Shown piece after piece: positions 8,781 through 20,000 of a stretch of DNA of 20,000 bases. The DNA comes from an uncultured bacterium (GTDB taxonomy: Bacteria; UBP4; UBA4092). The stretch spans positions 46,724-66,723 of the forward strand of contig CAZXWN010000015.1 of NCBI GenBank assembly GCA_964644695.1. The letters run 5' to 3'. The position numbers and the translations under genes were made by a program. Numbering within the stretch: the stretch's first letter is position 1; every line of letters begins with the position of its first letter. The notes below the pieces were generated by a model, which searched no databases, was not told the DNA's origin, and was given only the letters and a program-made list of their open reading frames with translations.

Positions 8781-8812
8781 AAAGAAGCGGTCTTGTGAGG
8801 CCGCTTCTTTTT
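8781..8812. terminator. Probable bidirectional terminator between phoU and namZ
   Basis: AAAGAAGCGGTCT-TGTG-AGGCCGCTTCTTT hairpin with A-rich and T-rich flanks between convergent genes. Confidence 0.85.
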
Positions 8813-8825
8813 ATTTATCGCACGT

Positions 8826-10013
8826 TTAACTGTATATCAAAAAGGGTTTTCGGATCTCTTTGAACTGTTCACTGTCATGTACCCACTCATTCCAAACCGT
8901 CTCTATGGACACTCCGGAAGAAATAGCTGTTCGGACCCGGTCTGAACCTAACAGATTATCAATGAAAAACCGTTCATACTTGATCCATTCAAAATCATTA
9001 CTAAATAAATGATTAAGGGCATATAGGACATGAAGTCCTGTCAGTGTGGGGATAAATTGATTGCGGTCTAAGACATGAACCTGGATTCCATGACAAACCT
9101 TCTTTTCGTTTTTACTATAAAACGGCGTGAAGAAGGTATGGCGAAACTTCATGCCTGGAAGATTTTTCTCATTAAGATAATCGGTCAACAAATCCGCATC
9201 AATATAAGGAGCACCGACCCACTCAAAGGGTCGGACTGTGCCTCGGCCTTCAGAGAGATTCGTTCCTTCAATAAAACACATTCCGGGAAAAACAATTGCT
9301 GTTTCAAGAGTGGCAAAGTTGGGAGAGGGTGGGATCCAGGCAAGCCCCGTCTGGTCATACCACATGGAACGAGACCAATCCTTCATCGGAATAATGACCA
9401 GGTTTTCCCCGTTATAGTCTCCACTGACACCGGCGATATATTCCTTCATACCCAGGTTGAATTGGGCATTATAAAATCTGGCTAATTCCCCCTGTGTGAG
9501 GCCATAGCGGATAGGAATAGGACTGTATCCGACAAATGTTCGAAAGTTCATATCCAGAATACTACCTTCTATCTGATTCCCATTGATAGGATTTGGCCGG
9601 TCTAATACAATAAAAGTCTTATTTTCCTCAATGCAGGCCTCAGCTGTATCCAGCAGAGTTGAAATGAACGTGTAAAACCGAGCTCCGGAATCCTGCATGT
9701 CAATAATAACGACATCAACATGAGATAGCATCTCAGGGGAAGGTTTATGGTTATTTCCATAGAGAGAAAAAACAGGTATCCCTGTCTTTGCATCGGTGTA
9801 GGAATCGATCGATTCCCCTTCCTTTGCGGCGGCTCTGAATCCATGTTCCGGAGCAAAAATGGCAGTCAAATTGACCTTAGCGTTGACAAGCGCATCGACA
9901 TTTTGGATCAGGTCTCTTGTAACCCCACTGGGATTGGTAATGATTCCCACCCTTTTCCCTTCAACAATACTAAGATAAGAATTTAATAATTGTTCTAAAC
10001 CGGTCGTAACCAT
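8826..10013 (-). CDS. namZ: Exo-beta-N-acetylmuramidase NamZ family (DUF1343/YbbC)
   Basis: FAPEHG, SLYG, DMQDSGARFYT, LDRPNP, PIRYGLT-GELA, WIPPSPN and EGTNLSEGRGT motifs; AAGGAG SD. Confidence 0.9.
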   Translation of the reverse strand: MVTTGLEQLLNSYLSIVEGKRVGIITNPSGVTRDLIQNVDALVNAKVNLTAIFAPEHGFRAAAKEGESIDSYTDAKTGIPVFSLYGNNHKPSPEMLSHVDVVIIDMQDSGARFYTFISTLLDTAEACIEENKTFIVLDRPNPINGNQIEGSILDMNFRTFVGYSPIPIRYGLTQGELARFYNAQFNLGMKEYIAGVSGDYNGENLVIIPMKDWSRSMWYDQTGLAWIPPSPNFATLETAIVFPGMCFIEGTNLSEGRGTVRPFEWVGAPYIDADLLTDYLNEKNLPGMKFRHTFFTPFYSKNEKKVCHGIQVHVLDRNQFIPTLTGLHVLYALNHLFSNDFEWIKYERFFIDNLLGSDRVRTAISSGVSIETVWNEWVHDSEQFKEIRKPFLIYS

Positions 10014-10056
10014 GTTATCTCCTTATTTCGAAAGAGTGTTCATTAAAAACTCCATC

Positions 10057-10065
10057 ATTCTATCA
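10057..10065 (-). promoter_or_regulatory. Extended -10 element (TGnTAGAAT) upstream of namZ
   Basis: Minus strand reads TGATAGAAT about 44 nt upstream of the start codon. Confidence 0.45.
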
Positions 10066-10216
10066 AATCTTGCAAGTCTGTATCAGATAGTCGTCCATAC
10101 GCCGTTCGGGGCTTTAATATTCCCTGTTTTTTTTTGGTAAAAAAGCTGGCAGGGCTTGTCAAAGATGCGAAAATGTGTTATTTGTTTTACAACCTTAAAA
10201 TATGGGGGTAAGAATC

Positions 10217-10756
10217 ATGTTGTTTGGACCTAAGGTAAGGTTATTGGTGGTGCTTCCTCTTTCAGACTTCGATGAAGAGGAATACAGGGAGATATTAAGG
10301 GCCTGTAAAGAGGTAAAAATCGGCGTGGAGATCGCCGCATCTCAGGGGCAAACCTGTGTGGGTTCAGGGGGGACCCGGGTCAAACCTCACACATCGCTGG
10401 ATCGTGTGGATATGACTCGGTATGGTGGTTTGGCTTTTGTTGGAGGGTTGGGTGTCAGGGACTATTTCAATAATTTGTTATGCCATCAGTTGGTACGCCA
10501 GGCCTTGCAGATGAAGATGGTGGTCGGGGCTATTGATTATGGACCGATGATTTTAGCTCGAGCGGAGGTGTTACGGAATCGCCGGGCTACAGTCCATCCC
10601 ACGGAAGAAACCCATTTTGTTGCAACAGGGAGTATTTATGAGAATGCTCCGACGGTGATTGATGGGCAGCTCATTACTGCACAGGACCATCACGCGTCCC
10701 GTGAATTTGCGGATGTGATGGCGGGTGCAGTCTTAAAAACCAGCGTTTTAAAATAA
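10217..10756 (+). CDS. DJ-1/PfpI family protein with atypical active site (Cys to Asp)
   Basis: DFDEEEY, FVGGLG, GAIDYGPMILA (family consensus AIC-x-G/A-P), RRATVH and VIDGQLITA. Start is 10217 or 10202. Confidence 0.85.
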   Translation: MLFGPKVRLLVVLPLSDFDEEEYREILRACKEVKIGVEIAASQGQTCVGSGGTRVKPHTSLDRVDMTRYGGLAFVGGLGVRDYFNNLLCHQLVRQALQMKMVVGAIDYGPMILARAEVLRNRRATVHPTEETHFVATGSIYENAPTVIDGQLITAQDHHASREFADVMAGAVLKTSVLK

Positions 10757-10772
10757 TCTGAATTCGATTTGT

Positions 10773-10811
10773 AAGAGTTACTCAGGTATTAATTCCTGGG
10801 TAACTCTTTTT
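10773..10811 (+). terminator. Intrinsic terminator after the DJ-1/PfpI gene
   Basis: AAGAGTTACTCAGG (10773-10786) / CCTGGGTAACTCTT (10795-10808) followed by Ts. Confidence 0.8.
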
Positions 10812-10892
10812 ATTTAGAGTATCCGGGAAACTTTTATTTTTTCAATTTGTTATCATTAATAATGAAATAGATATCATTTTTAAATGTGAGTT

Positions 10893-11708
10893 ATGTCTAT
10901 GTTGAAAGATGTACAGAGTGAAATTGATGTCCGTGGACTGGCCATAGATCAGGTCGGTGTCAAAGGTGTGCGTTACCCCATTGTTGTTTTAGATAAGAAA
11001 AATGTGAAACAACATACCGTGGCGACGATTAATATGTATGTAAATCTACCGCGTGAGTTTCGCGGCACGCACATGAGCCGATTCATAGAAGTATTGGAAG
11101 CTCACCGGGGTGAAATTGCGATTGGACGGATTGAAGCCATCCTGATTGAAATGAAAAGTAAACTCAAAGCCAAGGATTCATTTATTGAGATTGAGTTTCC
11201 CTATTTCATTGAAAAGAAGGCGCCTGTTACCAAAGCTAAATCCCTCATGGAATACCAGTGCAAATTTATCGGAAAACATAACAGTAATATTGAGTTGTTG
11301 ATTGAACTCAAGATACCTGTATCGACATTATGTCCCTGTTCAAAATCTATCAGTGACCGGGGAGCTCATAATCAGCGCGGGATAGTGAAGGTGACCTATG
11401 AGTCCCGGGAACTGATCTGGTTGGAAGATATAATTCATGCGGTGGAAGGTTGTGCCAGCAGTGAACTCTATACACTTCTGAAACGACCGGATGAAAGATA
11501 TGTCACCGAATATGCCTATGATCATCCGACCTTTGTAGAAGATGTGGTCAGGAATGCGGCGACTGCATTGTCCAAATTTGAGGGAATTGATTGGTTCCAG
11601 GTAGAGGCTGAGAACTTTGAGTCGATCCATAACCATAACGCATACGCCATGATTTATACCCACAGTTCAAAGAAAAAAGATATTGCTGAACCCGAATCCA
11701 CAAAATAA
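10893..11708 (+). CDS. folE2: GTP cyclohydrolase FolE2 (type IB)
   Basis: DVQ, RGTHMSRF, TLCPCSK, GAHNQR, LLKRPDE, FVEDVVR and ESIHNHNAYA motifs. Confidence 0.96.
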   Translation: MSMLKDVQSEIDVRGLAIDQVGVKGVRYPIVVLDKKNVKQHTVATINMYVNLPREFRGTHMSRFIEVLEAHRGEIAIGRIEAILIEMKSKLKAKDSFIEIEFPYFIEKKAPVTKAKSLMEYQCKFIGKHNSNIELLIELKIPVSTLCPCSKSISDRGAHNQRGIVKVTYESRELIWLEDIIHAVEGCASSELYTLLKRPDERYVTEYAYDHPTFVEDVVRNAATALSKFEGIDWFQVEAENFESIHNHNAYAMIYTHSSKKKDIAEPESTK

Positions 11709-11723
11709 CAGTGAGCAAATCAG

Positions 11724-11754
11724 ATAACGGTTATTGTTCAACAATAGCCGTTAT
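11724..11754. terminator. Hairpin between the convergent folE2 and RACo-like genes (probable terminator)
   Basis: ATAACGGTTATTGTT-C-AACAATAGCCGTTAT, overlapping the stop codon of the minus-strand gene. Confidence 0.7.
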
Positions 11755-13391
11755 TTTATATCCAGGGGTTTGAACTGAGCCCCATCAACAAACAAATCAA
11801 AGAAGTCTTCTTCCTGTTCTAATTCGATATGTTCAATTTTTCGGACAAGATCCTCGACTTCCTGCCGTTTGTTCTGATTCAATAATACCTGTCGTGCACC
11901 TTCCAATGCGGCATTCCCGATTTTCTTGATCCGGTCAAGAGGGAACGGAGGAATCAATCCTATTTCAATAGCATGTTCTGGGTCGATATACCAGGCAAAT
12001 CCACCCGCCAGATAGAAAGTATGGATATCTGACAGATGAAGTCCATATCTTCTTAACAGGATCTTTTGTCCGGCAATATTGGCTGATTTGGCCTGAGCAA
12101 GCTCAGAGATATCCGCACGGGAAAAGGTGATTCCTCGATCTTTTACGACCATGAAATAGTTACTGCCATCATGGAAACGGCCTAACTCATCCATCAACGC
12201 GTTACTTTTGAGCTCAGCCAGAAGGTCAATCAATCCCGAACCGCAGAGGCCATAAGGTTTTCCCTCGCCGATAACATGATAATGTACCTGACCCTCTTTG
12301 ATGGAAACCTTCTCAATCGCACCTTCCACGCCAGACATTCCATAGGTAATTTTCCCGCCTTCAAAGGCCGGACCGGCTGGGCATGATGCGGCAATGATGC
12401 GGTCCTTATTCCCCAAGATAACTTCTGTGTTTGTTCCAATATCGATCATCATCAGGGGTTTGTCACTTTTATCTATCCCCAGTGTGAGAGCGACAGCGGC
12501 CGTATCTGCGCCAACATGACAACCAATCAAGGGCAGGCCATACACCTTTCCCTGAGGATGAATGAATAAGCGAAGGTCTTTAGCGGTCCGCAGGAGGGAT
12601 GTGGAAGAAATAACTCCATCTTCAAAATCATATTGAGTAAGGGATTTATAAGGACTGACTCCGATGGTCTCGACATCTAATCCAAAGAAGATGTCCCGCA
12701 TGGTGGCATTACCCGCCAGAACTACCTCATAGATTTGTCTTCGGTTCACCGGGAATTTACGGATCTCCTGATTCAGAAATGAAATAATGGTGTCGTGTAA
12801 TCGACCTTGATGATCGGATTGATGGTCATAAGATATTCGGTGGAGGACATCGGAACCGCCATATTTCTGAGGATTCTCAAAAGAGGATACGGCTATCGTT
12901 TGTCCCGTTTCCAAATCCACCAGGTTGATGACAACGGTTGTTGTTCCCAAATCTATGGCTAACCCGTATAAATGGCCCTCATAAGAATCAATCAATTCCT
13001 GACCCCAATACACATCATCACCTTTACGATGGGTCAGGGGGGTCAATTCAACTTCGGCGATATTTCCCTGTTGGACGATTTGTAATGAGCCCTTGAAAGT
13101 CTGGCAATGAATATCAACATTATTCCAGGCCACTTTCGCCTGACAGGCCAGCCGGAAGTATTGTGGATTGGAATCCGATGACATAGGTTTCAGGAAAGAT
13201 TCTCTCTCCGTATAGGGAGAGAGGGCTTCTATTCCCTGTTTGATTTCGATGAGGCATTCCCGGCAAGTCCCGACTCTGCCGCAGGAGGAGGAAATATGTT
13301 TATAAGCGGACTCTGTCTGGTCCGCATGGTCAAAGAGAGTCTTTCCGGGTTGCAGGTCTAGTATTTCATCATTGATATAGAGTTTAGCCAT
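11751..13391 (-). CDS. RACo-like ATP-dependent reductive activator of corrinoid proteins (2Fe-2S ferredoxin plus ASKHA/DUF4445)
   Basis: N-terminal CGRVGTCREC...RLACQ 2Fe-2S motif; DLGTTT, NPQ..YGGSDVLHRI, AGNATM, VGADT, DIGTNTE, AGPAFEG, GLCGSG, LAGGF and GNAAL motifs. Confidence 0.9.
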   Translation of the reverse strand: MAKLYINDEILDLQPGKTLFDHADQTESAYKHISSSCGRVGTCRECLIEIKQGIEALSPYTERESFLKPMSSDSNPQYFRLACQAKVAWNNVDIHCQTFKGSLQIVQQGNIAEVELTPLTHRKGDDVYWGQELIDSYEGHLYGLAIDLGTTTVVINLVDLETGQTIAVSSFENPQKYGGSDVLHRISYDHQSDHQGRLHDTIISFLNQEIRKFPVNRRQIYEVVLAGNATMRDIFFGLDVETIGVSPYKSLTQYDFEDGVISSTSLLRTAKDLRLFIHPQGKVYGLPLIGCHVGADTAAVALTLGIDKSDKPLMMIDIGTNTEVILGNKDRIIAASCPAGPAFEGGKITYGMSGVEGAIEKVSIKEGQVHYHVIGEGKPYGLCGSGLIDLLAELKSNALMDELGRFHDGSNYFMVVKDRGITFSRADISELAQAKSANIAGQKILLRRYGLHLSDIHTFYLAGGFAWYIDPEHAIEIGLIPPFPLDRIKKIGNAALEGARQVLLNQNKRQEVEDLVRKIEHIELEQEEDFFDLFVDGAQFKPLDIK

Positions 13392-13482
13392 AATATGTGA
13401 AGGTCCGAATAAAAAACAGGGGATCCACCCTGTGATACAGATTCAATTTCTTTCCATTATATAGCAGGAGAGGATAGGGGCC

Positions 13483-13516
13483 CAAAATGAAACCGGTCCC
13501 GTTGATACGGAACCGG
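13483..13516 (-). terminator. Probable terminator of the 13541..13984 gene
   Basis: Minus strand CCGGTTCCGT-ATCA-ACGGGACCGG followed by TTTCATTTT. Confidence 0.6.
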
Positions 13517-13540
13517 CGATAAATCGTTATGAAGGAAGGA

Positions 13541-13984
13541 TTATCTTTTCTTGCTTGTTTTGGCGGCGGCAGGTTTGGAGTTGGTTTTAGGCCGGCTTTT
13601 CTCTAACCATTTTTGATGCCGAATATAGAGGGCTTCAAGCTGGCTGTATAATTTGGGATTCCCATGAGAAACTCTTTCCTGGGAGATCCATGAAGCCATC
13701 TTGGTCCAAATCAGAGGGAAATTGGGTGTCGTCGCTTGATAAAATAACTCTTCATTGATAAGACCCTGATTCACAAAAGTGGCGGCCATTTCCCAGTAAT
13801 TGCCCGTTAACTGGATATAATACTCTTCCTCTGACTCCGCTGGATATTTTCGTACCTTATCTTCCCAGCTATGGGCTTCGAATTGATTGATATACCATAA
13901 GGAAGCCTTACGATAGAGCGGATCATTCCGTAATGTGTAGAGCTGTAAGAGTAACTCGGCATCTTTTACTGTAGGTCGAGCCAT
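13541..13984 (-). CDS. Hypothetical protein, DUF4760-like
   Basis: AAGGAGG SD; DAELLLQLYTLR and YWEMAATFVNQGLINEELF resemble DUF4760-type proteins; basic low-complexity tail. Confidence 0.7.
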   Translation of the reverse strand: MARPTVKDAELLLQLYTLRNDPLYRKASLWYINQFEAHSWEDKVRKYPAESEEEYYIQLTGNYWEMAATFVNQGLINEELFYQATTPNFPLIWTKMASWISQERVSHGNPKLYSQLEALYIRHQKWLEKSRPKTNSKPAAAKTSKKR

Positions 13985-14124
13985 GGGCGTTATGCCCTCC
14001 TTCCGATTGGAATTGGAGTTTTTTTATCATCTATTAAATTTTGAAAGATTACCGTTTTTATGACTGTTGGACTTATCTCGTGCACCGGGATGGACCCCAT
14101 CAGTCCTTCCTGGTCCTTAAAATT

Positions 14125-14616
14125 CTAAAACTGAGAATGACCTTCTAAAGCTAAAAGCTGTTTTTTGATAGATAACCCGGCACTGAAACCACCCAATGAA
14201 CCCGTACCGGAGATGACTCGATGACAGGGAACGACAATCAAGAGGGGATTCCGGCCTACCGCCCCTCCAACCGCTCTGGATCCCTTCGGATTTTTGACGC
14301 GAGCGGCCAACTCACCATAAGAGACTGTTTCTCCAAAGGGTACTTTGATCAACTGATTCCAAACTCTCTGTTGGAACGGAGTTCCTTCGGACAAATCCAG
14401 TGGAAAATCAATTTGACCGGAACATCCCTTAAAATATTGTTTCAGCCATTTTATGACAGGTTTGAAATGGGAAGGTGAATGAATCCCTCTAAACTCTTGA
14501 TTTTGAGACGGTTGAGGAATATGCTGGAGTTTATTAACTCCTTTTCCCAAGTCTTCCAAGAGAAGGACTCCTATTGGACTCTCCCATATTTCATACCTTA
14601 TTTTGGCTGTTGTCAT
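14125..14616 (-). CDS. ogt: Methylated-DNA--protein-cysteine methyltransferase (Ogt/MGMT)
   Basis: GTPFQQRVW, GETVSYGELA, RAVGGA, NP, active-site PCHRV and K..LL.LE. Start ATG 14616 (MTTAK) is preferred over 14679. Confidence 0.93.
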   Translation of the reverse strand: MTTAKIRYEIWESPIGVLLLEDLGKGVNKLQHIPQPSQNQEFRGIHSPSHFKPVIKWLKQYFKGCSGQIDFPLDLSEGTPFQQRVWNQLIKVPFGETVSYGELAARVKNPKGSRAVGGAVGRNPLLIVVPCHRVISGTGSLGGFSAGLSIKKQLLALEGHSQF

Positions 14617-14785
14617 ATTATTCCCAAAAGTTGAGTGAATCGTATAACAAAATCTGAAAAAAAGCAAGAGGTACAGCAATTTATTGAATTCTTCTAACTT
14701 TTATTAAATCAAAGACTCACCCCTGTTTTAATTTAGGCCGATTTGGATTAATCTATTTATGGAAAGGAAATGGGACTCAAAACCA

Positions 14786-15505
14786 ATGAATATATTTGTT
14801 TTTATACCTACTTATAACGAAAAAGAGAACCTGGAACTGTTGGTGCGGGATATCCTGACCCGGAATCCAGAATTTAATATCCTCATTGTAGATGATTTAT
14901 CACCCGATGGGACGGGGGATATTGCAGACCTTCTGGCCCGTGAATATCAAAATCAAGTCTATGTCCTTCATCGTGAGGGGCCCCGGGGCAGGGGATGGGC
15001 AGGAATGGCGGGGTTCCAGGAAGCAGTTCGGCTGGGTGCGGATGCGGTTATTGAAATGGATGCTGATTTTTCACACCAGCCCCAATATTTAGGTGCTATT
15101 GCGAAAGCATTGGAGACCCACGATATCGTCATCGGGTCTCGGTATATTCCCCAGGGTGGAACGGAAGGATGGGGATTGAATCGGAAAATCAACAGTTGGG
15201 TGGCGAACCAGCTGGCAAAAAGAGTCTTGAATTTACCTTTTAAGGATAATACTTCCGGATATCGTGGATTCCGGAAAGAAATCCTCAATAAACTTCCCTG
15301 GGATACTTTCATCTCCCCCGGTCCCTCCATCTTACAGGAGATGTTGTATAACGCCCTTCCTCATAAACCGAAATCAGTGGAGATACCGATTATTTTTATT
15401 GACCGGACTCGGGGTGAATCGAAAATCTCCCTGAAAGTCATTTTGAAATGGATCCAATCCATGATACAGGTCAAGAAGAATCGTAAGAAATATTTGAATA
15501 AATAA
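14786..15505 (+). CDS. Polyprenol monophosphomannose synthase-like GT2 glycosyltransferase (Ppm1/DPM1 type)
   Basis: IPTYNEKEN, VDDLSPDGT, EMDADFSH, IGSRY, DNTSGYR and EIPIIFIDRTRGESK motifs. Start is 14786 or 14759. Confidence 0.9.
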   Translation: MNIFVFIPTYNEKENLELLVRDILTRNPEFNILIVDDLSPDGTGDIADLLAREYQNQVYVLHREGPRGRGWAGMAGFQEAVRLGADAVIEMDADFSHQPQYLGAIAKALETHDIVIGSRYIPQGGTEGWGLNRKINSWVANQLAKRVLNLPFKDNTSGYRGFRKEILNKLPWDTFISPGPSILQEMLYNALPHKPKSVEIPIIFIDRTRGESKISLKVILKWIQSMIQVKKNRKKYLNK

Positions 15506-16370: not shown

Positions 16371-18341
16371 TTATTTCTTTTTATTTTGATATTCGATGAT
16401 AATACTTTCCAGCCAGTCAAACAGCCGGTCATACTCAACCAGAAGCACATCGACCAGGGGCCGTTTATTATAACGAAGCCATAAATGTTCGAAATCATTT
16501 TTAATTCGCTGTAATAAGTGTTGCTGTTCCCTCAGCGAGTGGATAAAGGCGGCCAGTTCCCGGTTACAAACTTCGGTATTGATTGAAGTGTCCGACAGGA
16601 GTTGATCCAGTTTTTCTTTCCGGGGGATGTATAAAATCCGTTCCGATAACAGTCTGGCGCGCAGCAGGGTCATTTGGAAGATGTCCAGATGGTCCTGATG
16701 ACGGGTAACGGCTTGATCTGCCTTCGCCAGCAGGGATTCACCCAGGTGATACTGTTCCATTAATCGTGATGCCAGTTTGTCTCTGTCTGTGATGAGTTTT
16801 GTACATTGCTCGTTAAATCCATCACGCCAGATAGAAATAGCAGTGGTCGCATAATAGAATTTGAAATCATGATTCAGGTCGCCCAGCAGGTGGGTCAACT
16901 GAACAGGAGTGGAGTCTTTTGCTCCATAAAACACCTGGGCAAAATGGGTATCCCAATGGTCTGGGATATCCCGGTCAGGATTCCATCCGGTTTCAGCTGA
17001 CAGGGCGTAGAGGTACAAGTTACTTTCCCGGAGGGATTCGCCGCCGAAGTCCGCCCAGGCGGATTGGATCATCCCCAGAGCCCCTTTTTTATATCCCTGT
17101 CGGACCAGTTTGAGGTTTGATAATGCTTCTTCAATATCGGGGAAGATTCGCCCCCAGCAGTGGACACCGGGACTGACGATTTGTTTAAATCCCCACTGGT
17201 TGAAAGAATCGACCCGGTCATAATTTTCCCGGGGGATATAATCCCAGTTCACCATTACGATGTCTTTGGGTAATTTGTCTTTTAAGTCAGGGTAGGCGGA
17301 CTCAAACAACATATCCCCATACATCCAGCAGGTTTTTCCGTATTTATTCAGGATCTGCCGGACTCTCCGGACATGCTGGGCAAAGACTCCATCAATCCCA
17401 ATTTCAGAAGCGAGGGCTTTTGACCGGTGATGGCCTAAATCAGCAGTTTCATCACACCCGATACAAAAATTAGAGCTGGGGAATACCTCCACCAGTTCCC
17501 GGATACAATGGTCCAGGAAAAGATAGGTCTCCTCATTACCGGGGAAGAAACTCCAGGGATTATCCGGCCGTTCTGCCAGTTTCAGGTTTTCGGAATATTT
17601 CAACATTCGGTCCTGATGCCCCAGACATTCAAAAACAGGAATGATGTCCACAAAATAGTCTTTGGCATAAGCGACGAGTTCCCGGACTTCCGATTTGGTC
17701 AAACGGCCCCGGTTTTCTCCCAGCCAGGGATAAGTTTCCCACTCGAACATATCTTCAATGTAGGGCAGGTAGGCGTTCATCTTAAATTCAGCTAATTGGC
17801 GGATGATGTTTTTGAAATCTTCCAGGGTGGAGATTTGTCCGCGGGATATATCATCAGAAAGTCCCCGTAATGCCATCAAGGGCCAATCCCGAATGGTCAC
17901 AGCGGAAAATTCCAGGGGTTCATGGAGAGTATCCAGCCATTGCAGGAAACTTTGGGTCCCGTAAAAAACGCCCCGTTCGGTCTCTGCCGCAATCAATATC
18001 TGATTATTCCCGACATGGAGAAGATATCCCTCATCTCCGGTTTTTAATTCAAGTTCCAGTTTGGATTCACGGAGCGCATCTCTGAGCATTTTGAATTGAT
18101 AAGGGATACCCAGGATAATTTCAACCGGAGTTGTCGGGGGCTCATTCTCTATCTTCAGGGGGTTGGCCGTTCCCCCGGTCATAAACTGAATTTTATCGGA
18201 TATCATCCGGGCACATCGGTGGTAACAGAGGGAAGGGTCCGCATCGTTGATACGAATCGCAGTAGATGAATTGATGGTGACGGTTCCAACTCCCGGAGTG
18301 ATTTCCCGGGGATGGGGAATTATAGGTAAGGATAATGTCAT
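16371..18341 (-). CDS. Glycoside hydrolase family 20 beta-N-acetylhexosaminidase
   Basis: N-terminal zincin-like domain (IIPHP, EGYLL, GVFYGTQS, IRDWP); RGLSDDISRG; LGH; catalytic IGCDE pair; GGA/GAGG SD. Confidence 0.88.
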   Translation of the reverse strand: MTLSLPIIPHPREITPGVGTVTINSSTAIRINDADPSLCYHRCARMISDKIQFMTGGTANPLKIENEPPTTPVEIILGIPYQFKMLRDALRESKLELELKTGDEGYLLHVGNNQILIAAETERGVFYGTQSFLQWLDTLHEPLEFSAVTIRDWPLMALRGLSDDISRGQISTLEDFKNIIRQLAEFKMNAYLPYIEDMFEWETYPWLGENRGRLTKSEVRELVAYAKDYFVDIIPVFECLGHQDRMLKYSENLKLAERPDNPWSFFPGNEETYLFLDHCIRELVEVFPSSNFCIGCDETADLGHHRSKALASEIGIDGVFAQHVRRVRQILNKYGKTCWMYGDMLFESAYPDLKDKLPKDIVMVNWDYIPRENYDRVDSFNQWGFKQIVSPGVHCWGRIFPDIEEALSNLKLVRQGYKKGALGMIQSAWADFGGESLRESNLYLYALSAETGWNPDRDIPDHWDTHFAQVFYGAKDSTPVQLTHLLGDLNHDFKFYYATTAISIWRDGFNEQCTKLITDRDKLASRLMEQYHLGESLLAKADQAVTRHQDHLDIFQMTLLRARLLSERILYIPRKEKLDQLLSDTSINTEVCNRELAAFIHSLREQQHLLQRIKNDFEHLWLRYNKRPLVDVLLVEYDRLFDWLESIIIEYQNKKK

Positions 18342-18378
18342 TTTGTCCTGTCCTCGCTATGGGATGTGCTTTACTGAC

Positions 18379-18407
18379 AATTTACCACGAATCTGACTCC
18401 TATCCAA
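18379..18407 (-). promoter_or_regulatory. Putative sigma70 promoter of the GH20-hisA unit
   Basis: Minus strand TTGGAT-N17-TAAATT, with TG at the extended -10 position. Confidence 0.45.
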
Positions 18408-18443
18408 TACCATACGGAGACCCCTCGAAAAATCCCTTCCTAT

Positions 18444-18487
18444 CGAATCATCCACGGACCATCTCCGAGCAGCTCCGTGGATGATTC
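18444..18487. repeat. Dispersed palindromic element, copy 2
   Basis: Perfect 14-bp inverted arms GAATCATCCACGGA (18445-18458) / TCCGTGGATGATTC (18474-18487); 36/39 identical to 243-281, same orientation. Confidence 0.8.
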
Positions 18488-18537
18488 AGTGAGGATGAGT
18501 AATTGACCTGATAGTTGAATAGGGATAACAAATCTTC

Positions 18538-18566
18538 TTGATTATTGATTATAAAAAGTTTAATAT
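18538..18566 (+). promoter_or_regulatory. Putative sigma70 promoter of the SIR2-TPR gene
   Basis: TTGATT (18538-18543) - N17 - TAATAT (18561-18566); GGAGG SD at 18592-18596. Confidence 0.5.
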
Positions 18567-18600
18567 GTTCGCTAATGAGAACCTATCTATTGGAGGCATT

Positions 18601-20000
18601 ATGGAATGTAGTTTTGGGTCTGTTGTAGAAACAATCAGACATGCTAAAAAGGAAAATGGGGTAACTTTATTAATTGGGTCTGGTTGTTCTGTTACTGCAG
18701 GGATTCCAGCATCCGAAGGAATTATTGAACGGATTAAAAAGACTTTCCCAGAAAAAGCGAAGAAAGCTGAAAGTGAACACTATTCTTCATATATGAAGGT
18801 TTTAGAAGAAAATTTCCGAAATGATTTAATTGCTGAATATATAGAAAACGCTAATCTAAATTGGGCTCATATTGGTATAGCGCAATTAATCAAGGAGGGG
18901 TATGTTACCCGAGTCCTGACTACGAATTTTGATCCGTTGGTTATTCGTGCCTGTGCTTTAGTAAATAAATATCCTGCTGTTTATGATATCCCTTCCATGT
19001 CTAGTTTTGATCTCGAAAGAATTGCTGATCTTTCAGTGCATTATTTACATGGACAGCATACAGGAATGACTCTGGTTCATACGGATGCTGATGATGAGCC
19101 AATCAGGGATATTATTGATTCACTAATTAAAGATTCAATTTCAAAGAAACCGATTATTATTGTGGGATATAGTGGGGATTCTGATCCCGTATTTGAAAGC
19201 CTATGTAAAATTAAAAAGTTTAAAAGTGGTTTATATTGGATATGTTATCAAAAGGAACTTCCTCATCCTAAGGTAAAGTCTGGATTGTTTAATAAAGATA
19301 ACGGTGCTTATTATTGTTTAAACTATGATGCAGACTCCTTTTTTATTAAGTTATCCCGCGAACTGGGAATATTCCCTCCCCAAATCATGAAAAGGCCCTT
19401 TTCTCATTTACTTGAAATATTTGAATCAATTACGGACTTCCCCCTTGAAAAGGATAACACTCCGATACCATTAACTGCATACTACAAACGGATCATAAAA
19501 GATGCAGATGAGAAATATGGTGATTTAGACCAAATTGAGGAGAGTAATAATCCTAATGTGATAGCCATGAAAATGGCCTATTTGTTTGCTTCGGAAAGAT
19601 ATGAGGACATTGTTTTACTGGATTCTAAAATAATTGAGAAATTAAAAGATGATCAGAAGGATTCTTTGATTTGGACATATATTATCTTGGGGAATTCGTT
19701 ATCTGAGCAGGCAAAATGCAAGCAGAGAGAAGAAGCGGACCGATTATATCGAGAGTCCTATGAGAAATATAGGAAGGCCGTAGAGCTTAAACCTGATATG
19801 TATGTAGCCTACTACAACTGGGGAAATGTGTTATCTGAACAAGCCAGTGGCAAGCAGGGAGAGGAAGCGGACCGATTATATCGAGAGTCGTATGAAAAAT
19901 ATGGGAAGGCCGTAAAGCTTAAATCTGATATGTATGTAGCCTACTACAACTGGGGCCTAGCGTTATCTAAACAAGCCAGTAGCAAGCAGGGAGAGGAAGC
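18601..20000 (+). CDS. SIR2-like (sirtuin/NADase) domain protein with C-terminal TPR-like repeats; 3'-truncated, more than 466 aa; candidate anti-phage protein
   Basis: Translated by hand, open from ATG 18601 to the window end: LLIGSGCSVTAGIP, NWAH, VLTTNFD (TTNFD 18919-18933), YLHG (LHG 19045-19053), IVGYSG (GYS 19165-19173), LYWI, DADSFF, then 44-aa repeats YYNWGxxLSxQAxxKQGEEADRLYRESYEKYxKAVxLKxDMYVA. Confidence 0.9.
   Translation, partial: MECSFGSVVETIRHAKKENGVTLLIGSGCSVTAGIPASEGIIERIKKTFPEKAKKAESEHYSSYMKVLEENFRNDLIAEYIENANLNWAHIGIAQLIKEGYVTRVLTTNFDPLVIRACALVNKYPAVYDIPSMSSFDLERIADLSVHYLHGQHTGMTLVHTDADDEPIRDIIDSLIKDSISKKPIIIVGYSGDSDPVFESLCKIKKFKSGLYWICYQKELPHPKVKSGLFNKDNGAYYCLNYDADSFFIKLSRELGIFPPQIMKRPFSHLLEIFESITDFPLEKDNTPIPLTAYYKRIIKDADEKYGDLDQIEESNNPNVIAMKMAYLFASERYEDIVLLDSKIIEKLKDDQKDSLIWTYIILGNSLSEQAKCKQREEADRLYRESYEKYRKAVELKPDMYVAYYNWGNVLSEQASGKQGEEADRLYRESYEKYGKAVKLKSDMYVAYYNWGLALSKQASSKQGEE
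19681..20000 (+). repeat. In-frame 132-bp tandem repeat (44-aa TPR-like units), at least 2.4 copies, continuing beyond the window
   Basis: GAAGCGGACCGATTATATCGAGAGTC occurs at 19732 and 19864. 19732-19868 versus 19864-20000 differ at 12 of 137 nt by hand count. Confidence 0.92.

Follow-up and report, generated by a model that had tools for sequence, protein, structure and literature searches.

The solved SIR2 folds closest to the protein described here all act against phages or invading DNA. DSR2 of Bacillus subtilis joins a SIR2 domain to an alpha-solenoid sensor. Its sensor is a HEAT-like solenoid of ~700 amino acids (aa), and its ligand is the phage tail tube protein. The Sir2 subunit of SPARSA carries an APAZ domain, works with an Argonaute partner and senses guide RNA and target DNA. 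Thoeris ThsA has a signal-binding SLOG (or Macro) domain at its C-terminus and a ThsB/TIR partner. Avs5 (9nc9/9jap) combines a SIR2 head with a C-terminal repeat sensor, and Avs proteins require a central nucleoside triphosphatase (NTPase) of the STAND class (signal transduction ATPases with numerous domains) for oligomerisation. The gene considered here lies at the end of a stretch of 20,000 nucleotides (nt), referred to as the window, from an uncultured bacterium of the GTDB lineage UBP4; UBA4092 (assembly GCA_964644695.1, here genome G000; contig CAZXWN010000015.1, here C15). It encodes a SIR2 head followed by an array of tetratricopeptide repeats (TPRs), and is called SIR2-TPR below.

At about even confidence, SIR2-TPR is read here as a DSR2-like, NTPase-independent sensor and NADase combined in a single protein. 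This reading is favoured because the anatomy, the predicted fold, an invariant catalytic set, separable modules, a fast-changing array and a mobile, partly phage-borne spread all fit it. The plan of a SIR2 domain followed by an alpha-solenoid is that of DSR2, but the array has no detectable sequence similarity to the DSR2 sensor and differs from it in its homogenised 44-aa TPR units, its ladder of asparagines and its end-of-group cap. Unlike the SPARSA subunit, SIR2-TPR has neither an APAZ domain nor a partner; unlike ThsA, it has a TPR C-terminus and no conserved partner; and unlike Avs5, with which it shares the SIR2 head and the C-terminal repeat sensor, it has no STAND NTPase. Pfam and NCBIfam searches of the window protein and of the full-length relatives examined recognised no NTPase or Walker A family. 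[quoted passage not shown] Both proposals are borne out, as there is no zinc module, no NTPase and no conserved partner gene.

The same description could not match the architecture to a named system. This stands for PADLOC-DB v2 (2023), in which no model covers the full SIR2-TPR architecture, either for the window protein (E <= 0.1) or for six full-length relatives (E <= 1e-10). It does not stand in full, since public annotation of the family exists ('SIR2 family protein', 'TPR end-of-group domain-containing protein') and the design of SIR2 plus alpha-solenoid is that of DSR2. The best PADLOC match of the window protein is the SIR2 associated with prokaryotic Argonaute (1.8e-22), in the SIR2 part only, and the SPARSA models (Aga_SIR2) match SIR2-TPR in that part alone. 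The ThsA1 model matches the window protein only at E 0.0034, again over the SIR2 part, and no DSR model is among the matches of the window protein or the six relatives. PDC-S65 and SIR2-TPR share a related SIR2 domain (1.6e-15 to 1e-22) and have unrelated C-terminal halves. On the PDC-S65 profile of 592 positions, the window protein covers ~34-290 (1.6e-15) and relatives cover ~32-294, one of them 126-407, while a true PDC-S65 protein at locus L087 covers 16-588 (2e-204).

Related architectures also appear in the literature. Kaur et al. 2021 (PMC8195603) describe a variable-effector conflict system that combines TPRs with GreA/B-C and PIN domains in a constant C-terminal region; neither GreA/B-C nor PIN was found by Pfam in four full-length relatives or in the tail of the gene recovered from contig C1 (below). 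A figure legend in PMC12700824 mentions leaves of a SIR2_2 tree labelled TPR, and 10.1101/2024.09.18.613514 refers to eukaryotic SIRim proteins fused to a TPR-like domain.

The gene and its SIR2 head

The window corresponds to G000:C15:46724-66723, and its end is the end of contig C15 (66,723 bases). The listing of open reading frames (ORFs) gives a frame from ATG 18601 to 19998, encoding 466 aa with no stop up to the window end. Both this long frame and its Shine-Dalgarno sequence had been reported correctly beforehand. An alternative in-frame TTG at 18538 would give 487 aa, adding 21 residues; relatives begin their alignment at residue 1-8 of the ATG-start form. The features in the window are as follows.

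18592-18596, + strand: Shine-Dalgarno sequence GGAGG, 4 nt 5' of ATG 18601, by direct reading of the sequence
18601..20000, + strand: SIR2-TPR gene, 5' part (codons 1-466 and 2 further nt), severed by the end of contig C15
18601..19365, + strand: SIR2_2 (SIRim-type) catalytic domain with a Rossmann fold, aa 1-255
18676-18690, + strand: GSGCS of the NAD loop, within GSGCSVTAGIP (aa 26-36, nt 18676-18708)
18919-18933, + strand: TTNFD, aa 107-111, with N109 and D111
19045-19053, + strand: LHG, aa 149-151, with H150
19165-19176, + strand: GYSG, aa 189-192
19366..19716, + strand: conserved helical linker, aa 256-372, with an FPP...PF motif, helices at 261-347 and then a degenerate first repeat
19717..20000, + strand: canonical 44-aa (132-nt) TPR units, the first at 19717-19848, the second at 19849-19980 and the third, cut off, at 19981-20000; the array carries on past the end of the contig

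All four head motifs reported beforehand (GSGCSxxxGIP, TTNFD, LHG and GYSG) are present where they had been placed. Pfam assigns the head to SIR2_2 (PF13289) with 33.2 bits against a cut-off of 24.5, and the canonical SIR2 family (PF02146) reaches 18 against 24. The CobB-type models of NCBIfam reach 15-27 bits, where the cut-offs lie at 221-395. CxxC pairs are absent from the 466 aa of the window protein, in agreement with the reported absence of zinc-binding cysteine pairs. An alignment of the window protein with 45 relatives shows no variation at N109, D111, H150, G151 or Q152, and the conservation of S30 is at least 90%. According to PMC11850899, the catalytic residues of DSR2 are S51, N133, D135 and H171, which correspond to S30, N109, D111 and H150.

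Structure prediction points the same way. An AlphaFold2 model of SIR2-TPR built from the alignment has a mean confidence (pLDDT) of 91.2 and a pTM of 0.88, and the top Foldseek ranks for it are DSR2, the SPARSA Sir2 subunit and ThsA, with Avs5 also in the list. Defence sirtuins align with the model over 240-256 aa, canonical sirtuins over ~200 aa only. In a profile comparison with the sequences of solved structures (PDB), the SPARSA Sir2 is nearest (4.8e-11). The head is a SIR2 domain of the defence type with predicted NADase activity, as had been proposed from its motifs; the catalytic Asn and His are invariant in all 46 sequences.

Linker and predicted dimer

The head is followed by what had been described as a linker of roughly 100 aa. 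A linker of that size is present (aa ~256-360), but it is no loose tether, being conserved, folded and responsible for most of a predicted dimer interface. Residues F258, P259, P260 and P266 are invariant in the 46-sequence alignment, and the region folds confidently as helices (pLDDT 76-93). A homodimer model scores an ipSAE of 0.73 (runs 0.80, 0.73 and 0.68) against 0.00 for the best of three controls, a score that may partly be memory of solved SIR2 oligomers. Among proteins solved as pairs, 20 of 30 attained the mark used for a dimer, compared with 1 of 23 among those solved as single chains. At least 48% of contacts are common to the runs, and the partner pLDDT is at least 80.

In the modelled, symmetric interface, residues 262-306 of each copy lie against 85-91, 32-33 and 112-154 of its partner. 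The family-invariant N87-W88-x-H90 and the linker motifs take part in this interface, which would explain why these motifs are invariant. The interface also contacts the NAD loop (32-33) and residues 151-154 beside H150, and its predicted position is one from which it could control the active site.

The TPR array

The helical repeats reported after the linker are confirmed by Tandem Repeats Finder, which gives a 132-nt tandem repeat at 19718-20000 (2.1 copies, 90% match). In profile comparison, the repeat matches both consensus TPR proteins, relative to which each unit has a 10-residue insertion, and plant TOM20; among relatives, Pfam reports TPR_11, TOM20_plant and, in some, 'TPR-S'. In total, 765 units were extracted from 185 proteins, with 1-11 canonical units per protein, and successive units lie 44 aa apart in 480 of 580 spacings. 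The scaffold of the unit is uniform across phyla, and the variable positions are 28, 30, 33, 37, 40, 41 and 44. By profile alignment, positions 30, 33, 37, 40 and 41 are TPR helix-A positions 2, 5, 9, 12 and 13, which we take to be the concave, ligand-contacting face.

Unit position 34 (TPR position 6) is an asparagine in 773 of 888 units (87%), counted from an anchor that does not depend on the asparagine. O-GlcNAc transferase (OGT) likewise has a long superhelix of TPRs, each of which contributes one conserved Asn to the concave face, and its TPRs are matched by the family array profile at ~1e-12. According to PMC11145291, this ladder binds extended peptide backbones, with neighbouring residues conferring selectivity. 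The enzyme head and the biology of OGT are unrelated and its units have 34 aa rather than 44; the likeness concerns only the possible mode of ligand binding.

The array and the head evolve differently. Among 64 complete genes, the array is more diverged than the head in every one of the 59 pairs with at least 70% head identity. For example, the heads of L003 and L005 are 97% identical, their arrays are 66% identical and their unit numbers are five and two, while L009 and L046 have two and nine units. Near-duplicate units, with at least 85% nt identity within a gene, occur in 19 of 49 genes. These comparisons show that the array evolves faster than the head and that units turn over.

The changes are concentrated on one side of the repeat. 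For one most-similar unit pair per gene (35 genes), the ratio of nonsynonymous to synonymous change (pN/pS) is 0.79 at the seven most variable positions, a set picked from the same data, and 0.32 at the other 34; at the five concave-face positions defined a priori it is ~0.93. Constraint on one face of the array is, by this measure, shown to be strongly reduced. Strict positive selection is not supported by ratios of 0.79-0.93 on the binding face. In its faster divergence, unit turnover and variable concave face, the array behaves like a variable recognition module, in keeping with the sensor role that had been suggested.

Completing the gene across an assembly gap

The preliminary description placed the C-terminus outside the window. 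It is indeed beyond the window, but is still in the genome, where contig C1 ends with it on the reverse strand. Apart from the array in the window, only one place in the genome resembles the repeat, namely the terminal ~130 bases of C1, on the opposite strand. The reverse complement of this end reads as one further TPR unit, a 60-residue tail and a stop.

G000:C1:838052-838387, - strand: 3' end of the SIR2-TPR gene, outside the window, 111 aa plus stop, from translation of the contig C1 tail

The C1 tail (P0121) passes the NF047558 'TPR end-of-group' model with 40 bits against a cut-off of 32, over residues 52-106 of 111. In a scan of the whole genome it is the sole clear full-length match to this model (40.6 bits), and two weaker matches need the scores of adjacent hits in their frame to be added before they reach the cut-off. 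The same cap is found at the equivalent place in the relatives P0004, P0006, P0018 and P0071. The repeat register at the C1 end corresponds to window position 19901, and the frame is retained if the gap measures 32+132k nt. The joined protein would have at least 589 aa (466+12+111), and the joined gene stands alone, convergent with the genes next along C1. The genome holds exactly one orphan SIR2-TPR head and one orphan tail.

Near-identical 132-nt repeats are an ordinary reason for breaks in short-read assemblies. The Logan contigs of the runs X1-X4 are likewise broken within the array, and the gap between C15 and C1 is spanned by none of them. One run contains extra unit variants at a depth of 7-8x, where the unique part has 5.45x; summed depth is not a copy number, and this only hints at additional TPR units in the gap. 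A contig from run X3, belonging to another study's sludge metagenome, is ~96% identical over window positions 19310-19611 (11 differences) and diverges to unlike sequence exactly at the onset of the TPR-like helices. It may represent a strain carrying a different array.

Family, modularity and distribution

SIR2-TPR belongs to a large family. Of 8000 candidates scored in a word-indexed search, 431 are relatives, and the best 120 of these are 480-816 aa long and 30-43% identical across nearly the whole query. When the head and linker (300 aa) were compared exhaustively by phmmer with 1.84 billion representatives, the numbers of matches were 2359 (E <= 1e-3), 1001 (<= 1e-10) and 632 (<= 1e-30). 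The top match is 47% identical, and the 632 are representative clusters at 50% identity. With the 111-aa tail as the only query, little was retrieved (two matches from 93 candidates, both SIR2-TPR). In the ESM Atlas, the nearest clusters by features combine SIR2_2 with TPR families (51-261 members).

Heads and C-termini can be exchanged. The best 150 matches to head and linker comprise 122 with 44-aa units, 25 with another C-terminal region and three short proteins, and in 16 of those with another C-terminus there is no Pfam family beyond SIR2_2. Conversely, a profile of array plus cap (A2) retrieved 1180 proteins, and 73 of the 88 new ones among its top 120 carry a head of the SIR2-TPR type. 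Nine of the remaining 15 have a KGGVGR-motif ATPase head (NF047398 at 120-150 bits, cut-off 90), one is apparently a truncated copy of these, four have a second SIR2_2 subtype and one has an apparently transmembrane N-terminus. As both ends are interchangeable, head and array are separable modules. The proteins that join a KGGVGR (variant ParA/MinD-like) ATPase to array and cap are P0129, P0137, P0141, P0143, P0151, P0152, P0174, P0195 and P0202; the phrase 'KGGVGR' had no match in the literature searched. P0163, labelled as a toxin nuclease (PF15648), was considered as an effector swap and dropped, as BLASTP shows an ordinary SIR2 head.

With one genome taken per species, 218 stretches encode a relative. 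In a patchy distribution, they come from Acidobacteriota, Chloroflexota, Planctomycetota, Alphaproteobacteria, Myxococcota, Actinomycetota and Nitrospirota, and from one metagenome-assembled genome of Methanosarcinaceae. Members are most numerous in Acidobacteriota, Chloroflexota, Planctomycetota, Myxococcota and Alphaproteobacteria. A tree of the heads (76 rows, quick IQ-TREE) requires 24 changes of phylum against a minimum of 11, and it has starred clades in which phyla are mixed. Near-identical copies occur in Bradyrhizobium and Mesorhizobium. Phylogenetic incongruence of this kind shows that the gene is horizontally mobile. The window protein has a long branch (0.95) and an unusual composition in this tree, and its gene has 35% GC against 45-48% in the flanks. 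A search of 40 relatives, only four of which belong to the same family or class, gave no orthologue. One of the same-family genomes has an 881-aa ORF (G002:C2:358161-358952, L084) with a distant SIR2 at its N-terminus (30% identity over residues 20-260, E 5e-8), which is not an orthologue.

Some members and relatives are carried by viruses or plasmids. A 36-kb viral contig, recovered three times (L098, L099 and L100), encodes a 1185-aa SIR2-TPR protein (L098 7989-11546) that has the motifs of the head, the linker and the cap and contains ~18 homogenised units. This gene lies ~2 kb upstream of a large terminase gene whose product is 58-59% identical to those of known phages. A distant SIR2-plus-TPR analogue lies beside the integrase region of Halfgib1, a temperate pleolipovirus of Haloferax. 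On a Bacillus albus megaplasmid (L087, NZ_CP128151.1, 430870-449697), a 661-aa relative lies between full-length PDC-S65 and PDC-S41 candidates, the latter a helicase-domain protein, with a small alarmone-synthetase-like gene nearby. Together these genes form a cluster of defence candidates. This relative has the SIR2 and linker head of the family and a different C-terminus without a Pfam family.

Genomic neighbourhoods

Neighbourhoods were compiled for 75 of 80 genome loci, L029, L034, L037, L060 and L077 being omitted, here and from the counts of gene pairs, as a simple ORF caller found no head-containing ORF there. PADLOC was run on the 368 neighbours within three genes on either side, and Pfam on the 118 immediate neighbours. 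There is no conserved partner gene. The largest cluster of neighbours is present at 6 of the 75 loci, the positions vary and the orientation of the flanks is random.

The clearest case of a defence context is L070 (Bradyrhizobium australafricanum, 8783-15011), where SIR2-TPR lies between a 297-aa fragment of Hachiman HamB and QatB, QatC and QatD; this neighbourhood is a clear defence island. The near-identical relatives L076 and L078, from Mesorhizobium and another Bradyrhizobium, are without HamB or Qat neighbours. Other defence-type neighbours are a TIR protein with a transmembrane region at L004, a TIR-WD40 protein at L005 (L004 and L005 are close kin), PDC-M05B at L011, and a PDC-S02/YhcG nuclease with a Cas4-like gene at L032. 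The PADLOC labels 'IetA' (L007) and 'DpdF' (L021) were left out of the defence count, as Pfam identifies these proteins as FtsH and topoisomerase I. The neighbour matches to PD-T4-6, mad2/3, RtcR, ZorB and LmuB are generic similarities to kinases, HATPases, sigma-54 proteins, OmpA and SMC.

The related Pyrinomonadaceae loci L003, L004 and L005 have an isochorismatase-family gene at -1 on the other strand, and the isochorismatase family includes nicotinamidases. At L063, the gene at +1 encodes the glutamine-dependent NAD synthase NadE. These neighbours are possible links to NAD metabolism, or may be due to chance. L078 has a neighbour that resembles the Tle1 lipase of the type VI secretion system (T6SS).

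Proposed mechanism and competing explanations

If SIR2-TPR is a DSR2-like sensor and NADase, the SIR2_2/SIRim-type head would be the NAD+-consuming effector, the helical linker would mediate a head-to-head SIR2 dimer, and the array would be the sensor, a superhelix of 44-residue TPR units closed by the end-of-group cap. The concave groove, with its Asn ladder and flanking hypervariable residues, would hold a segment, in extended form, of one particular foreign protein, which most likely comes from a phage or another mobile element. Binding would rearrange the SIR2 dimer or a higher oligomer and open the active site (S30, N109, D111, H150). Hydrolysis of NAD+ would then arrest the infected cell, as in DSR2 but through another sensor and without an NTPase. 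The NADase activity, the identity of the ligand, the triggering of hydrolysis by its binding and the defence outcome are inferred, and the same holds for the phage-protein ligand of the preliminary description.

Should this be correct, the family would be a large group of one-protein immune sensors, with 632 head clusters at 50% identity. Its members are found mostly in environmental phyla and outside defence islands, so screens based on guilt by association would have missed them. A SIR2 NADase would seem to be linked to a TPR sensor with no need of the NTPase switch on which Avs and NLR-type proteins depend, and the phage-borne member would be a natural system for phage-against-phage exclusion. 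The scaffold of the array, its probable backbone-binding Asn ladder and its specificity positions can be told apart from the sequence alone. This makes ligand prediction, array swapping and re-targeting directly testable.

A bolder version of this idea is tentative. It takes the array with its Asn ladder to be a 'cassette' receptor, used by bacteria and phages, in which the units of a homogenised scaffold would be duplicated, lost and recombined while a handful of residues of the groove diversify, giving a recognition of extended peptides that could be re-targeted quickly. With interchangeable heads and no STAND NTPase, such proteins might form a distinct, widespread and NLR-independent class of sensors missed by methods that rely on defence islands. 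The logic would resemble that of variable receptors based on leucine-rich repeats.

A number of observations weigh against the reading as a DSR2-like defence sensor. The enrichment of homologues in defence islands, which the preliminary description had put forward as a check, came out weak, with a defence-type gene within three genes on either side at only 5 of the 75 loci (a raw count with no control set). The antiphage neighbourhood criterion of Bonhomme et al. reportedly spans 20 genes on either side, wider than the three used here. Immediate neighbours are mostly housekeeping genes according to Pfam, and so are the genes that neighbour SIR2-TPR in the window. Among ~2.9 million viral contigs in IMG/VR, only six encode relatives. 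The window copy is split in the assembly and only probably intact across the gap. For the array, besides the choice of the seven positions from the data on which they were scored, pN/pS on the binding face is below 1 overall and exceeds 1 only at positions 37 and 40, so that relaxed constraint on exposed residues may account for the pattern. The possible memory of solved oligomers in the dimer score is a further reservation. Literature searches found no functional study of this architecture and no experimental test of a member. Confidence is kept near one half by the weak defence-island signal and by a ligand and a function that are putative.

The main alternative, in itself rather unlikely, is a conflict or programmed-death module with a trigger other than a phage. 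The TPR array would recognise an endogenous or competitor peptide, such as a stress signal, a marker of kin or non-kin, or a secreted effector, and the SIR2 head would kill or arrest the cell or ADP-ribosylate a target. The same anatomy and the same evolutionary signatures would apply, most loci lie outside recognisable defence islands, and the concentration of the family in Acidobacteriota, Chloroflexota, Planctomycetota, Myxococcota and Alphaproteobacteria is in keeping with it. So are the T6SS-type lipase gene that adjoins L078 and the occurrence of the same array on a KGGVGR-motif ATPase, which does not look toxic. What speaks for a phage or other invading element as the trigger is placement typical of antiphage cargo, with members beside a (pro)phage terminase gene and in the Hachiman/Qat island and a plasmid relative next to PDC candidates, together with the antiphage or anti-invader role of all the closest solved SIR2 folds.

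Less likely still, and improbable on present evidence, is a housekeeping or regulatory NAD-dependent enzyme, either a deacylase or a mono-ADP-ribosyltransferase, whose TPRs recruit host substrates. The mostly housekeeping contexts, the few neighbours related to NAD metabolism (the isochorismatase-family genes at L003, L004 and L005 and NadE at L063) and a weak NCBIfam similarity to CobB over the first ~100 aa are compatible with such a role, as is the precedent of OGT, which shows that TPR Asn ladders can recruit many substrates. The CobB-type scores fall far below their cut-offs, however, the zinc cysteine pairs are lacking and the domain is SIR2_2 rather than SIR2. A search of 40 relatives did not find the gene, which is foreign in composition and horizontally scrambled across phyla, and rapid turnover of the array between close kin would be unexpected in a housekeeping recruiter.

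That the window copy is broken or decaying, with the C15 and C1 pieces not forming one intact frame, is very unlikely: the assembly and the public contigs break inside the array with none bridging the gap, and the window protein has a long branch and an unusual composition, but there is no stop in 466 aa, every invariant family residue is retained, the C1 end keeps register and frame and its cap passes NF047558, the genome holds a single orphan head and a single orphan tail, and near-identical 132-nt repeats are a standard cause of short-read breaks.

Other features of the window and genome

Upstream of SIR2-TPR lies a divergent GH20-like gene. The candidate promoter reported in the preliminary description was not recovered, as a scan of 18300-18700 found no sigma-70-type promoter where shuffled sequences lead one to expect 0.9; the promoter type of the host may not be sigma-70-like, so this carries little weight. 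The intergenic region between the two genes contains a near-palindrome at 18445-18487, with 21-nt arms that are 86% complementary and 1 nt apart. No T-run follows it, and it may be an operator or an RNA hairpin. Elsewhere in the window, a DUF4760 gene (147 aa, 13541-13984, - strand) lies between genes for a RACo-like ATPase and an Ogt methyltransferase.

The genome contains a second SIR2_2 gene, at G000:C11:7145-9145 (L095:1117-3117), which encodes 666 aa (Pfam 34.4 bits) with no further Pfam domain and is unrelated to SIR2-TPR by BLASTP. It has ~30% GC against ~50% in the adjacent ComM/YifB-like gene, and is probably another acquired SIR2 protein.

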